This document shows, piece by piece, positions 884 to 61,503 of a stretch of 64,000 nucleotides of DNA. The stretch's first letter is position 1, and every line of letters begins with the position of its first letter. Below the pieces are notes generated by a model, which was given only the letters and a program-made list of their open reading frames with translations, had not been told where the DNA came from and searched no databases. The position numbers and the translations under genes are program-made. Source of the stretch: an uncultured delta proteobacterium (GTDB taxonomy: Bacteria > Desulfobacterota > Desulfomonilia > UBA1062); the NCBI GenBank assembly GCA_963785235.1, contig CAWAUM010000003.1, positions 32,001 through 96,000 on the forward strand, given 5' to 3'.

Positions 884-899
884 TGCAACGTCAGTGCCA
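884..899 (-). promoter_or_regulatory. Sigma54 (-24/-12) promoter for the PKD lipoprotein
   Basis: Minus strand TGGCACTGACGTTGCA, exact GG-N10-GC spacing. Confidence 0.7.
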
Positions 900-56910: not shown

Positions 56911-57948
56911 CTATGAGAGGATAACAGCCTCTCCACCCTTGGGCCGCGTCTCGATATAGCCAATGATATCAGCAGATTCCTTGAGACCCTTCAACCTGAG
57001 CATTACATCATCTGCATCTTTTGGAGAAACGACCAACACCATGCCGACACCCATATTGAAGGTCCTGTACATCTCTGTATCTTCGATCTTCCCGACATCC
57101 TGAATAAATCGAAATATGGGCGGTATGCCCCACGAACCTTTCTCGATAACAGCTGTTGATCGTGCAGGGAGTACCCTGGGGATATTGTCGATAAAACCGC
57201 CTCCGGTAATGTGGACAACGCCTTTTATCTCAAAACCCCTAATGATATTGAGCATACTTTTAACATAGATCCTTGTGGGTGTAAGAAGTTCTGCAGCTAA
57301 TGACTTACCCAGATCCTCGAGATAATCATCAATGCGCATCTTAGCACGATCGAAGAGGGCCTTCCTCACCAGAGAAAAACCGTTACTATGCAGCCCTGAT
57401 GAATGTATGCCGATAAGGACATCCTTTGCAGAGATACGGGATCCATCGATGATCTTATCACTATCAACTACACCGACGCCGAATCCTGCCAAGTCATACT
57501 CGTCCTCTCGATAGAAACCAGGCATCTCGGCGGTTTCACCGCCGATAAGCGCGCAACCAGCCTCTTTGCACCCGCTTGTAATGCTTGATATAATGACCTT
57601 GGCGCGATCCAGGTTGAGTTTGCCGGTGGCAAAATAATCGAGGAAAAACAGGGGCTGTGCCCCAACGACGATGAGATCATTTACTACCATAGCCACAAGA
57701 TCAATTCCGATACCCTCATGGTTGTCTGCCATGGATGCGATTTTCAGCTTGGTACCAACGCCATCGGTAGATGAGACAAGGATGGGTTCGGTATAATTCC
57801 TGATGTCCAGTTTAAAAAGGCCTGCAAATCCACCTATACCACCGATGACCTCAGGCCCATGGGTAGACTTCACACTTGATTTGATAGCCTTGACAAGTAG
57901 GTTCTGTTTGTCAATATCAACCCCTGCATCACGATAGGTCAAAGACAT
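56911..57948 (-). CDS. purM: AIR synthetase
   Basis: Y..AGVDI, DGVGTK, GGETAEMPG, HITGGG and FNMG.G motifs. Confidence 0.97.
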   Translation of the reverse strand: MSLTYRDAGVDIDKQNLLVKAIKSSVKSTHGPEVIGGIGGFAGLFKLDIRNYTEPILVSSTDGVGTKLKIASMADNHEGIGIDLVAMVVNDLIVVGAQPLFFLDYFATGKLNLDRAKVIISSITSGCKEAGCALIGGETAEMPGFYREDEYDLAGFGVGVVDSDKIIDGSRISAKDVLIGIHSSGLHSNGFSLVRKALFDRAKMRIDDYLEDLGKSLAAELLTPTRIYVKSMLNIIRGFEIKGVVHITGGGFIDNIPRVLPARSTAVIEKGSWGIPPIFRFIQDVGKIEDTEMYRTFNMGVGMVLVVSPKDADDVMLRLKGLKESADIIGYIETRPKGGEAVILS

Positions 57949-58010
57949 CTATACCCCCAACTCTCTACCTACTATATGAGAATATTGAGCTAGTCAATCC
58001 GGCATTAAAG

Positions 58011-58047
58011 AAAAAAAAGATGGCGGTTTGGGCTTTTCCCCGCCATC
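58011..58047 (-). terminator. Intrinsic terminator of the candidate sRNA
   Basis: Minus strand GATGGCGG-N13-CCGCCATC followed by T8. Confidence 0.85.
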
Positions 58048-58114
58048 CTTAGAGGAGGTAGATAGGAGTTATATGTCTTTGAAGAAGTTTTTCCGTTTAC
58101 TTTCTCTTTTAATA
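58011..58114 (-). ncRNA. Candidate sigma54-dependent small RNA (about 104 nt) with two anti-SD motifs
   Basis: Bounded by a -24/-12 promoter and an intrinsic terminator; contains ACUCCU and ACCUCCU just 5' of the terminator. Confidence 0.6.
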
Positions 58115-58124
58115 CCCTTCAATG

Positions 58125-58140
58125 AGCAATGGTCATGCCA
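58125..58140 (-). promoter_or_regulatory. Sigma54 promoter
   Basis: Minus strand TGGCATGACCATTGCT, GG-N10-GC. Confidence 0.8.
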
Positions 58141-58237
58141 ACAATAATGACAATCATCTATCAGGTTGCATTTAAAGATAGTTTATGATGATCAGCAGGA
58201 TTCTCCCCTGAATTATCGCTATTAATGACATCCTCAG

Positions 58238-58288
58238 GTGTATATTAAATATACATCATGACTATACAGGTGTATAAAAGATATACAC
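58238..58288. promoter_or_regulatory. Tandem palindromic enhancer sites (GTGTATA-N5-TATACAY x2)
   Basis: 58238-58256 and 58270-58288, 32 bp apart, both preceded by CAG. Confidence 0.75.
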
Positions 58289-58345
58289 TTATTCTTCGAA
58301 AAATAACCTCCTCTGCGTGGAGAATGCTTATCAGAGGACTGTGGC

Positions 58346-60136
58346 ATGAGAGTTGTAAGGCATATACCGGATTATTTTATGGATAATAACAACTCAATAC
58401 ATTCCAAAAAGGCCTGGATCAAAATATCACCCTGGGTGATCATGGGCTCCCTCATCGTGATGGTGCCCATCTTCATTTTCACCACCATGGAGAGCATACG
58501 GACCCAGAGGAAGAACATGTACCACATGCTCAGCGAGAAGGGAGATACCCTTATCCGATCTTTTGAAGCCGGTACCAGAACGGGCATGATGGGCCAGGGC
58601 TGGAGCGGGGCCCAGGTTCAGCGCCTCATCATGGAAACAGCGGAAGAGCCGGATATCCTCTATATCCTTATAACAGACAAGGATGGAAAGATCGTTGCCC
58701 ATAACCAGCCCATGAACATCGGCAAGACATACGGGCTCGACATCGACCGGGCAAGGCTGAGTCATATCCTCAAATGGAGGGTTATCAAGGACGAGAAAGG
58801 AAGGCAATCCTTCGAAGTGTATCGAAGGTTTCATCCCTCCCGGAGCGGGATGATAATTCTCAAACGTAAACGACCTCTACGCGACTGGTTTTACCCACAC
58901 ACCCTGCCGCAGATGGAAAGACCTCCGGTACAGAGTATCTACATTGGGCTGAATATGCAGCCGGTTGAGCAGATTATCTCAGAGAGTATAAAACAGAGAA
59001 TCTTCCTGGCGGTAATCCTGTCCATGTATGGACTGCTTGGGATTGTAGCCATTGTCATTGCACAGAATTACCGGTCCACAAAGGCCTCGTTATCCAGGAT
59101 CAAGGCCTTTTCTGATACGCTGGTGGACAATATGCCCATAGGCCTCATTTTTATCGATCAAGAAGGGAACATCGTTACACTCAACGACGTATCTGAAAGT
59201 CTTCTTATGGTCACCACGGCTGATACCGCTGGCAAAAAGGCCGAAGAGGTGCTCCCCGAACAAATATCAAAACTCATTGAAGATATTCAGAACCCCCATG
59301 ACATAGCCGTGCGTGACCTGCGTATTCCTCTCCTGGACAAAGTCATGGTGTATGAAGCCAGCGCAAGCTTCCTTACCGATGAAGACCGCACGTTCCTAGG
59401 CTATATCGTGCTGCTGCGCGATATTACAGAGATCGAACAGCTGAAAAGGGAAGTGGAACGCAAAGAGAGGCTTGCTGCCATCGGCAGCCTTGCAGCCGGC
59501 GTCGCCCATGAGATCAGGAACCCGTTGAGCTCCATCAAGGGTTTCGCCACCTACTTCAAGGAGCGCTACCGTGATATCCCGGAAGACCAGAGAATTGCCG
59601 GGATCATGGTTGGCGAGGTTGAACGCCTCAACCGTGCCATCAGCCAGCTTCTGGATCTCTCCCGCCCAATGGATCTGAGGATGAAGGAGACCTCCCTGGT
59701 GGAGTTGGTAAATCGTTCTCTCGCAATGATTGAGAAGCAGGCTTTGGAAAAAAACATCGCGATTGACCGTTCGGGGCTTCCGAGTGACCCCTGCTACGCA
59801 GATATAGACCCTGACAAGACAGGACAGGTACTGCTCAACCTCTTTCTCAACGCCATGGAGGCCATGACAGGAGGGGGAACCCTTACGGTGGCCATCAGGC
59901 ATGATGAAACATCCTCCAGGTTTTCCATCCACGTGTCAGACACCGGAGGCGGGATCTCCCAAGAAGACCTCCCCCACATATTTGACCCATATTTCACCAC
60001 AAAACAGTCCGGAACAGGCCTCGGGCTTGCCATTGTCCATAGAATAATAGAGGCCCATGGCGGTGAGATCAAGATTGAAAGCACGCCCGGTCAAGGCACA
60101 ACGGCCATACTGGGCATACCTGAAGCAGGAGCGTGA
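58346..60136 (+). CDS. Membrane sensor histidine kinase with PAS domain (ZraS-like)
   Basis: Two TM helices; SFEAGTRTGM periplasmic motif; AHEIRNPL, N, D/G1 and FTTK..GTGLGL boxes. Confidence 0.92.
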   Translation: MRVVRHIPDYFMDNNNSIHSKKAWIKISPWVIMGSLIVMVPIFIFTTMESIRTQRKNMYHMLSEKGDTLIRSFEAGTRTGMMGQGWSGAQVQRLIMETAEEPDILYILITDKDGKIVAHNQPMNIGKTYGLDIDRARLSHILKWRVIKDEKGRQSFEVYRRFHPSRSGMIILKRKRPLRDWFYPHTLPQMERPPVQSIYIGLNMQPVEQIISESIKQRIFLAVILSMYGLLGIVAIVIAQNYRSTKASLSRIKAFSDTLVDNMPIGLIFIDQEGNIVTLNDVSESLLMVTTADTAGKKAEEVLPEQISKLIEDIQNPHDIAVRDLRIPLLDKVMVYEASASFLTDEDRTFLGYIVLLRDITEIEQLKREVERKERLAAIGSLAAGVAHEIRNPLSSIKGFATYFKERYRDIPEDQRIAGIMVGEVERLNRAISQLLDLSRPMDLRMKETSLVELVNRSLAMIEKQALEKNIAIDRSGLPSDPCYADIDPDKTGQVLLNLFLNAMEAMTGGGTLTVAIRHDETSSRFSIHVSDTGGGISQEDLPHIFDPYFTTKQSGTGLGLAIVHRIIEAHGGEIKIESTPGQGTTAILGIPEAGA

Positions 60137-61503
60137 TGATGGCAGTCAGCATGAGGAGAGACATCCTGGTAGTGGATGATGACTTCAGTCATCGAACCAT
60201 GCTCAAAACCCTGCTTTCAGGATGGGGATATGAGGTCAGCGAGGCTGACGACGGTCAGGTGGCAATCGATATGGTCCAGGAACGGCCCTTTGATCTGATC
60301 CTCATGGACATCCGCATGATCAAGGTATCAGGACTGACAGCCCTGGCAGCCATCAAGGAGATCAACCCTTCCATCCCTGTCCTCATCATGACCGCTTATT
60401 CCTCCATCGACACGGCAATCGATGCCATAAAAAAGGGCGCCTATGAATATCTGACAAAACCGCTCGACTTTGATGAGCTGCATTTGAAGATGGAACAGGC
60501 AATGGATCACAACATGCTCAAGGAGGAGAATCGTCTTTTAAGAGAGCTCGTGGGAGAGCGCTTCGAAACCGGGAATATCATAGGCAGGAGCCCTGCCATG
60601 ATCCGTCTTCTTGAAACTACGGCCAGGGCCTCATCATCGGAAGCAACGGTTCTTATCACCGGAGAATCCGGGACCGGCAAGGAAATGATCGCCGGCGCCA
60701 TCCACTTCAATTCCCCCCGGAAAGACCACCCCTTCATCAAAATGAACTGTGCCGCCATTTCGGAAGGATTACTCGAATCCGAACTATTCGGACACGAAAA
60801 GGGCTCATTCACCGGGGCGTTACGCCGCAGGGAGGGCCGCTTCAAACAGGCACATGGAGGCAGCCTCTTCCTTGATGAAGTCTCTGAAATGCCCCTGTCC
60901 ATGCAAGTCAAGCTCCTGAGGGTGCTCCAGGAAAAAGAGATCACCCGGGTCGGCGGCGAAGAGGTGATCCCGGTGGATGCCAGGATCATTGCTGCGACCA
61001 ATAAAGACCTCCCTACCCTTGTCAAGAAAGGTCTTTTCAGAGAAGACCTTTACTATCGGCTCAATGTAATCAACCTTTCCGTCCCGCCGTTAAGAGATCG
61101 CAGCGAGGATATACCTGTTCTGGCTGAACACTTTCTCAAAATGTTTGCCCTCAGGAACAACAAACCATTGAAAGGCTTCTCACCCCAGGCCATGGACCGG
61201 CTCATCAAGTATCCATGGCCCGGTAACGTGCGCGAGATGATGAATACGGTTGAGAGTGCTGTAGTCCTGTCCAGCTCGGACTACCTGAGGGATGAGGATA
61301 TCCCTGTTTTCCGGCAGGAAGAATTATATAAGGCTCCCCTGGAAGGGGGCGGTTCCGCTGAGTTCAGCCTGGACGAGATCGAACGCCTCAGCATATTGAA
61401 GACCCTGGGATCAGCCCAGGGAAACAAGAGCGAGGCTGCGAGAAAACTCGGCATCACGAGAGCGACACTGCACAAGAAGCTGAAGAAATATGGAGTGCCC
61501 TGA
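60133..61503 (+). CDS. Sigma54-dependent response regulator (ZraR/NtrC family)
   Basis: Receiver domain; GESGTGKE, ESELFGHEKGSFTGA and WPGNVRE motifs; Fis HTH. Confidence 0.95.
   Translation: MMMAVSMRRDILVVDDDFSHRTMLKTLLSGWGYEVSEADDGQVAIDMVQERPFDLILMDIRMIKVSGLTALAAIKEINPSIPVLIMTAYSSIDTAIDAIKKGAYEYLTKPLDFDELHLKMEQAMDHNMLKEENRLLRELVGERFETGNIIGRSPAMIRLLETTARASSSEATVLITGESGTGKEMIAGAIHFNSPRKDHPFIKMNCAAISEGLLESELFGHEKGSFTGALRRREGRFKQAHGGSLFLDEVSEMPLSMQVKLLRVLQEKEITRVGGEEVIPVDARIIAATNKDLPTLVKKGLFREDLYYRLNVINLSVPPLRDRSEDIPVLAEHFLKMFALRNNKPLKGFSPQAMDRLIKYPWPGNVREMMNTVESAVVLSSSDYLRDEDIPVFRQEELYKAPLEGGGSAEFSLDEIERLSILKTLGSAQGNKSEAARKLGITRATLHKKLKKYGVP

Follow-up and report, generated by a model that had tools for sequence, protein, structure and literature searches.

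The stretch analysed here, below called the window, comprises 64,000 nucleotides of contig CAWAUM010000003.1 from an uncultured delta proteobacterium of the Desulfomonilia, and its intergenic region between purM and a gene for a sensor histidine kinase is the subject of this work. The initial annotation described in this region, on the minus strand, two palindromes, a −24/−12 promoter and a unit of about 104 nt that carries two anti-Shine-Dalgarno (anti-SD) motifs and ends in a terminator. All of these elements were located in the sequence (Table 1), and the naming of purM, a kinase and a regulator as flanking genes agrees with the domain scan and with the gene coordinates. The unit is probably a real gene for a small RNA (sRNA) of a new family, dependent on sigma-54. 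Comparison of related loci indicates that the predicted RNA is the conserved 3′ untranslated region (3′UTR) of a ZraP-like mRNA, left after deletion of the coding sequence.

Table 1. Features of the purM-kinase region and the further family members in this genome; coordinates are those of the window unless a contig is named.
Feature	Coordinates	Strand	Basis or remark
purM	56911-57948	minus	domain scan
Sensor histidine kinase, sCache_3_2/PAS/HisKA/HATPase_c	58346-60136	plus	domain scan; best NCBIfam match ZraS, under cut-off
Sigma-54-dependent response regulator, receiver/Sigma54_activat AAA+/HTH_8	60133-61503	plus	domain scan; best NCBIfam match ZraR, under cut-off
Distal enhancer palindrome, GTGTATA-N5-TATACAC	58270-58288	minus	putative site of the adjacent ZraR-like regulator; unique in the genome, kept in relatives
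Proximal enhancer palindrome, (A)TGTATA-N5-TATACA(C)	58238-58256	minus	about 115 bp upstream of the −24 GG; unique in the genome, kept in relatives
Sigma-54 promoter, TGGCATGACCATTGCT	58140-58125	minus	pattern scan; GG at −24, GC at −12; kept in relatives
Predicted primary transcript, about 104 nt, candidate sRNA	58114-58011	minus	start from promoter geometry, end from the U8 tract
Purine-rich leader	58114-58091	minus	not conserved between lineages without the open reading frame (ORF)
CU-rich motif, ACUCCU	58069-58064	minus	kept in most zraP-type copies of the genus
Main seed, ACCUCCUCU	58059-58051	minus	first eight bases are ACCUCCUC
Terminator hairpin, stem GGAUGGCGG/CCGCCAUC	58048-58019	minus	conserved GCCCA loop motif
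U8 tail	58018-58011	minus	sequence read
Second family member, stand-alone	G000:C5:266157-266244 (L180:4958-5045)	minus	5′ hairpin ATGCATCC...GGATATGCAT
Third family member	G000:C5:72396-72476 (L179:4997-5077)	minus	own sigma-54 promoter TGGCACACGTTATGCA; different, compensated stem

The kinase scores 392.9 against the ZraS equivalog of NCBIfam (cut-off 479) and the regulator 527.9 against that of ZraR (cut-off 760). The genome contains rpoN (208.8 bits) and hfq (73.9 bits; the gene was confirmed). On the minus strand between 58011 and 58345, no ORF of at least 40 aa was found.

A textbook −24/−12 promoter had been claimed, and the pattern TGGCAY-N5-TTGCW is indeed matched with canonical spacing; its C at −12 places the predicted start near 58114. 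This pattern occurs twice in the window, compared with 0.27 matches expected, and 6 of 100 shuffles reach two matches. The second perfect match is TGGCACTGACGTTGCA (884-899, minus strand). The palindromes, whose centers are 32 bp apart, are situated about 115 and about 147 bp upstream of the promoter, the enhancer range tested being about 80-150 bp. In a scan of the genome, the core TGTATA-N5-TATACA was found only at these two sites in 3.91 Mb, the reversed-pattern control gave no matches genome-wide, and the relaxed form GTATA-N5-TATAC occurred at five sites. A lone half site resembling an upstream activating sequence (C12:185779) was rejected, as it has no sigma-54 promoter close by and lies in an unrelated context. 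No exact consensus of the integration host factor was observed between the enhancer and the promoter. The palindromes are presumably binding sites of the adjacent regulator.

On the kinase side, TGGCATGAGAGTTGTA (58342-58357, plus strand) has a sigma-54-like −24 element and an imperfect −12 element (TTGT, no GC). The start annotated for the kinase gene (ATG at 58346) falls within this motif, the next in-frame ATG being at 58379. The motif is conserved within the genus at the DNA level, and the other genus in which the region was found (see below) has one resembling it. It may serve as a divergent autoregulated promoter using the same enhancer, as in zraP/zraSR of E. coli.

Both anti-SD motifs of the RNA were located, i.e., ACUCCU and the main seed ACCUCCUCU. 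The latter has seven bases in common with the anti-SD tail of the genome's own 16S rRNA, which ends in GGAUCACCUCCUUUCU. The GC stem followed by U8 closes the unit as described; this terminator hairpin is the sole structure in the centroid fold (−17.8 kcal/mol). It was not listed by a simple terminator scan because its loop exceeds the 8-nt limit of that scan. The purine-rich leader is probably a degenerate remnant of the 5′UTR and first codons of the zraP-like gene, i.e., of its former Shine-Dalgarno (SD) region. The initial annotation also foresaw that Rfam would yield no family, and the best score was 17.6 bits against gathering thresholds of 44-110. On the strand of the RNA, the best Rfam match is LhrC, at an insignificant 16.7 bits (gathering threshold 110), so that the RNA is not a member of that family. 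The Rfam scan of the paralogue loci described below gave one noise match only. The TTGACT box assigned to purM itself (57997-57992, minus strand) is in place with TATAGT 15 nt downstream, although this spacer is shorter than 16-18 nt and the promoter scan did not list it. The stretch between the U-tract and purM is 68-69% identical in the G003-G005 group.

To place the region in its evolutionary context, we searched for it at the DNA level in 41 genomes, including 16 of the sister family. It was found in 16 genomes, namely in all 15 of the genus (this one included) and in one of another genus, and in none of the 16 genomes of the sister family. The BLAST similarity between the loci forms two islands, one comprising the palindromes and the other the last ~80 nt. 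The conservation in relatives on which the initial annotation had staked its proposal is complete at this level, as the palindrome, the sigma-54 motif, and the 3′ element are kept in 16 of 16 loci. Two perfect GTATA-N5-TATAC palindromes are present in 11 loci and one in the remaining five. Between the proximal palindrome and the −24 GG there are 114-116 bp in 14 loci, and 101-102 bp in the other two. In 14 of the 16 loci purM is retained on the same strand; in the other two, which have the element, purM is outside the flank examined.

Downstream of the promoter, nine of the 16 loci have an AAGGAG-type SD sequence and then an ORF of 150-176 aa with a signal-peptide-like start. Both ORFs that were scanned match PF13801 (Metal_resist; 56.5 and 39.6 bits, cut-off 29.2), and their best NCBIfam match is ZraP, under the equivalog cut-off. 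In these loci CCUCC and the terminator element are located tens to about 110 bases past the stop codon, that is, in the 3′UTR. The remaining seven loci, including the one studied here, have no such ORF, and about 90-125 nt separate the promoter from the main seed downstream of it. When an ORF-less locus is aligned with a ZraP-bearing relative, believable homology is limited to the promoter plus 17-31 nt and to the last 80-90 nt; the leader between the promoter and the element does not align across the ORF-less lineages. A divergent zraP under the shared enhancer is absent at this locus, the two PF13801 genes of this genome lie at unrelated loci, and no orthologue of the ZraP-like protein was found elsewhere in the genome (best match 16 bits, 28% identity). 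In the relatives the element occupies a 3′UTR and shares its terminator with the mRNA, whereas in this genome no coding sequence precedes it. Hence the description of the unit as one without a gene holds for this genome but not for its history, given the zraP-like gene at this promoter in nine loci.

In the kinase tree, the seven ORF-less genomes share a clade (support 98/98) with a single ZraP-bearing genome. As all outgroups in this tree carry the zraP-like gene, and zraP with the element is also present in three further genera, the ORF-bearing state appears to be ancestral and the RNA-only state derived. One or two losses of the zraP-like gene would fit; the kinase tree as drawn needs two. 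At one locus (L014/L035, G014:C61:10692-11005), two identical tandem 3′ elements, 227 nt apart, follow the zraP-like gene.

The four-fold degenerate sites of the adjacent purM served as a neutral reference in comparisons of this genome with ten relatives. For the nine more distant relatives, the identity at these sites is 29-46%, compared with 73-87% in the same pairs for the element (the 70 nt preceding the U-tract); the respective values for the closest of the ten relatives are 79% and 94%. The promoter is kept at 12-16 of its 16 positions in the ten relatives, and 36-46 of the 52 positions of the palindrome region match in the nine distant pairs. In the ORF-less relatives the element is 87% identical and the neutral sites 34-46%. 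Being so far above neutral identity, the element does not look like a decaying relic, and its single-stranded part appears to be constrained as well as the stem. These identities point to purifying selection, with a much stronger constraint than that at neutral sites.

A covariance model built from the conserved element (the 80-nt module) matches this copy with 97.7 bits (G000:C3:90009-90094, i.e., 58009-58094 of the window). It finds one to four matches per genome in 43 of 52 genomes of this organism's uncultured family within the Desulfomonilia, representing 9 of its 14 genera. The sister family, which belongs to the same class, gave no match in 70 genomes. An exact-pattern scan with one genome per species, in which 80 of 100 stretches were examined, produced 81 matches in 80 loci, 54 of them (53 loci) with a T-run after the pattern. 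The titles read for the T-run matches are those of Deltaproteobacteria, Desulfomonilia, Syntrophaceae, Thermodesulfobacteriota, or "Bacteriovoracaceae" metagenome-assembled genomes (MAGs); the 27 matches without a T-run are in GC-rich, coding-looking DNA of other phyla.

The family alignment contains 98 matches, 69 of them distinct, and ACCUCCUC is present in 68 of the 69. In the stem, 92.7% of cells are paired and both-side changes occur at 5 of 10 pairs. None of 500 shuffles reaches the observed covariation score, the alignment having been fitted to the model, which favours structure. In the aligned 86-nt segments the median predicted probability of an unpaired seed is 0.89, and 56 of 68 members reach at least 0.7. 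In some relatives the zraP-type RNA seems, by eye only, to have a conserved 5′ hairpin, which has no alifold support and was discarded.

This genome has three copies, the studied one and two others (Table 1). The stand-alone copy has a −10-like hexamer just upstream, read as sigma-70-like, and has a TPR/multihaem cytochrome gene on one side and an unknown 159-aa ORF on the other; its type, the commonest across the family, is conserved in 15 of 15 genomes of the genus. The third copy, also present in two close relatives, is convergent with an hsp20-lon pair. With this copy included, at least three paralogue types besides the studied one have sigma-54 promoters, each seen in a single lineage (this genome with two close relatives; a fourth genome of the genus; a MAG locus). 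Another genus (G064:C126, G058:C3, G067:C1; L176-L178) has family members in pairs, the two being on the same strand, 4-5 kb from each other, on either side of several ORFs. By these matches, the predicted RNA is a member of a multi-copy family without an Rfam match.

With ACCUCCUC next to a terminator and a U-tail, the RNA is laid out like an Hfq-type base-pairing sRNA. Repression at ribosome-binding sites (RBSs) is the best-supported mode of action, because ACCUCCUC is invariant, mostly accessible, and adjacent to the terminator and U-tail, and its complement is a strong SD sequence. As a whole, the account that we favor, and consider moderately probable, is that of an sRNA driven by a two-component system through sigma-54, left by the loss of zraP, and blocking RBSs in trans. 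The activated ZraS/ZraR-like system would bind both palindromes, and the bound regulator would drive sigma-54 RNA polymerase at the −24/−12 promoter, the output being an RNA of about 104 nt terminated at the hairpin and U8. Its 80-nt 3′ module would derive from the 3′UTR belonging to the mRNA of a ZraP-like periplasmic chaperone, an arrangement that most relatives still have; deletion of the coding sequence in this lineage would have left the RNA as the sole product of the promoter. In trans, ACCUCCUCU, with ACUCCU, would pair with the SD regions of target mRNAs and block initiation of translation, probably assisted by Hfq, as a part of the envelope or metal stress response. The support is comparative throughout: the sequences show the elements with their uniqueness and conservation, the loss of the gene, the family, and purifying selection, and we infer transcription, the assignment of the activator sites, trans action at RBSs, and the nature of the stress signal. 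The initial annotation had already proposed a circuit leading from the two-component system via sigma-54 to an anti-SD RNA. The elements of this circuit are kept in all 16 loci, but its RNA now appears as a leftover of the zraP 3′UTR and as one member of a multi-copy family.

Several observations weigh against this account. The full RNA folds no better than shuffled sequences (z = −0.42). The stretch of motifs before the terminator had been presented as apparently unpaired, but for the complete 104-nt transcript of this genome the prediction leaves the main seed just 36% unpaired, owing to weak pairing with the purine-rich leader. In the zraP-type copies the terminator stem is nearly invariant, with both-side changes at 1 of 10 pairs. 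Autoregulation of the kinase operon may alternatively explain why the palindromes are conserved. Being generic, the anti-SD core does not account for specificity. A search of sequencing runs listed no RNA run that contains the locus. Across the genome, the seed region has no more complements than the reversed control, with 126 and 129 occurrences, respectively, at k = 11 and, after subtraction of the self-match, 18 and 26 at k = 12 and 3 and 3 at k = 13. The best candidate target site, the RBS of a Usp-like gene, was rejected as evidence, since it shows no co-variation with the seed in the 13 relatives with a readable site, where the orthologues keep little beyond the SD sequence itself.

The only 13-nt perfect complements of the seed are at the RBS of this Usp-like gene, which is duplicated near contig ends (G000:C11:295063 and C12:299535; L184, L199). 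The C11 copy has the 13-nt perfect complement and the C12 copy one base less, which is chance level. In both copies the first codons AUG AAG AAG complement CUUCUUCA of the RNA; the frame of the C11 copy is seemingly interrupted after 88 codons in the assembly. Duplex-energy prediction of targets over 8171 SD-bearing ORF starts yielded a broad, uninformative distribution dominated by doubtful ORFs. Two other observations were set aside. The only contig obtained from four sequencing runs, 151 nt of a relative (90-95% alike) from a library merely guessed to be RNA, corresponding to 57977-58092, runs past the terminator and is uninformative on expression, and ACCTCCTCT in the kinase leader (58306-58314, plus strand) is present in this genome only and was taken as chance.

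An alternative explanation is that nothing functional is transcribed, i.e., that the terminator shields purM from sigma-54 transcription, the palindromes autoregulate the kinase operon, and the short transcript is a functionless relic. The clear loss of the coding sequence, the same-strand purM in 14 of 16 loci, the sigma-54-like motif on the kinase side that could use the same enhancer, and the empty target searches would all suit such a relic. It is nevertheless distinctly unlikely, as the single-stranded part, too, has an identity of 0.87 in the ORF-less relatives (neutral sites 0.34-0.46), the five ORF-less relatives compared retain 15-16 of the 16 positions of the RNA-side promoter, and the same module forms stand-alone genes elsewhere in the genome and the family. 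The RNA might instead be functional without blocking RBSs, either in cis, through pairing of the anti-SD motif with the SD sequence of zraP, or through binding or titration of a protein by the GGA at the stem base or by the GCCC loop. The cis version does not explain why the element was retained after the loss of the coding sequence, or why stand-alone paralogues exist, even though AAGGAGG or AAGGAGA precedes the start codon in ZraP-bearing relatives and the former SD-like leader still pairs weakly with the seed in this genome. The protein-binding version has in its favor a hairpin and loop motif far more invariant than termination requires. Known protein sponges have many GGA motifs, however, and this RNA has just one; moreover, the invariant ACCUCCUC is predicted to be mostly unpaired across the family, which argues against both versions. 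We consider a function of this kind unlikely.

Two further possibilities concern what the transcript might encode or precede. With purM starting 63 nt past the U-tract on the same strand, and with the synteny noted above, the RNA could be a purM leader or attenuator with regulated read-through of the terminator. Such a role is very improbable given that a whole protein gene separates the promoter from the element in nine relatives, that two loci keep the element without purM in the flank examined, and that the paralogues are in unrelated contexts. In addition, folding of the RNA revealed no alternative anti-terminator structure, Rfam gave no riboswitch match for it, and a stress-type sigma-54 enhancer would be an odd driver for a purine gene. 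That the unit encodes a small protein is the least probable of these explanations, and exceedingly so: an ATG within the terminator stem opens short frames in several relatives, but this ATG comes directly after its only SD-like bases, differences in loop length shift the frame, and the peptides are unrelated past the first two residues; the absence of ORFs of 40 aa or more on this strand speaks against it as well.

For the favored account, i.e., a trans-acting sRNA left by the loss of zraP, several known systems provide partial parallels, the closest analogues of the RNA being CpxQ, GlnZ, OxyS, Qrr, and LhrC. The locus resembles ZraPSR of E. coli in that the kinase, the regulator, and the PF13801 protein of the relatives have ZraS, ZraR, and ZraP as their best matches and are arranged divergently around a shared enhancer. 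In a genomic SELEX study, E. coli ZraR has a single high-affinity target, the bidirectional zraP/zraSR spacer (PMC8249747), and the enhancer described here, apparently the only site of its regulator in the genome, mirrors that result. The differences are that all three NCBIfam scores are under the equivalog cut-offs, that the kinase has Cache and PAS input domains, and that in this genome the ZraP gene is missing, with an RNA in its place. A literature search for zraP combined with sRNA and UTR found no report of an sRNA from the zraP 3′UTR and returned one review only.

CpxQ is an sRNA from the 3′UTR of cpxP that acts in the Cpx envelope stress response (PMC4817254). The relatives studied here likewise have an mRNA for a stress-induced periplasmic chaperone of the CpxP/Spy/ZraP kind with a conserved, terminator-sharing 3′UTR, and, as with CpxQ, their two-component system would deliver one protein and one RNA effector. 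The Rfam search shows no sequence relationship to CpxQ, the promoter is of the sigma-54 type, and the RNA of this genome is a predicted primary transcript and not a processing product. OxyS is reported to be an sRNA that took the place of a peroxidase gene while remaining part of the OxyR regulon; its gene is divergent from that of the regulator, consists of a fragment of the mRNA of the ancestral neighbor, and is under the control of the same regulator (PMC8825220), all of which resembles the present case. The regulator class, the sigma factor, the RNA, and the taxon differ, and in the present case the coding sequence disappeared after the 3′ fragment had become conserved and probably functional.

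The Qrr sRNAs are LuxO-dependent, exist in multiple copies, and share a seed. GlnZ derives from the 3′UTR of glnA, which is NtrC-controlled and sigma-54-dependent. Both combine an NtrC-family activator and sigma-54 with an Hfq-type sRNA, GlnZ being also 3′UTR-derived. Neither is homologous to the RNA described here (no Rfam match at E ≤ 10 except noise), whose seed is a generic anti-SD and whose signal differs. The CU-rich motifs of the LhrC RNAs of Listeria pair with SD regions, and we know of no sigma-54 type promoter for these RNAs. The LhrC sRNAs are reported to be multi-copy, CU-rich, and induced by the envelope-stress two-component system LisRK (PMC4132741), so that they share with the present family the combination of copy number, CU-rich sequence, and two-component control; their host is Gram-positive. 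A literature search for Desulfomonilia and "small RNA" found no sRNA report. What is probably new is the RNA family and its origin from zraP; 3′UTR-derived sRNAs, sigma-54-dependent sRNAs, and an sRNA that replaces a gene are kinds already known from CpxQ, GlnZ, Qrr, and OxyS.

If the favored account is true, the locus is a natural experiment on the birth of an sRNA gene, in which the same promoter and enhancer give either a protein together with a 3′UTR RNA or the RNA alone. As the RNA was kept where the protein was lost, it would be the part that selection did not let go. The account would further add a family of sigma-54-dependent sRNAs with an anti-SD seed to the phylum and tie envelope or metal sensing of the ZraPSR type to post-transcriptional control, and the covariance model can be used to annotate this family in metagenomes. 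Tentatively, we suggest as a possible, though not the more probable, outcome that an envelope-stress system of the ZraSR type has, in one lineage, dispensed with its protein and kept only an RNA effector that began as the chaperone 3′UTR, and that a new, lineage-wide, multi-copy family of anti-SD-mimic sRNAs, several of them sigma-54-controlled, could throttle translation initiation on strongly SD-dependent mRNAs under stress in uncultured Desulfomonilia.

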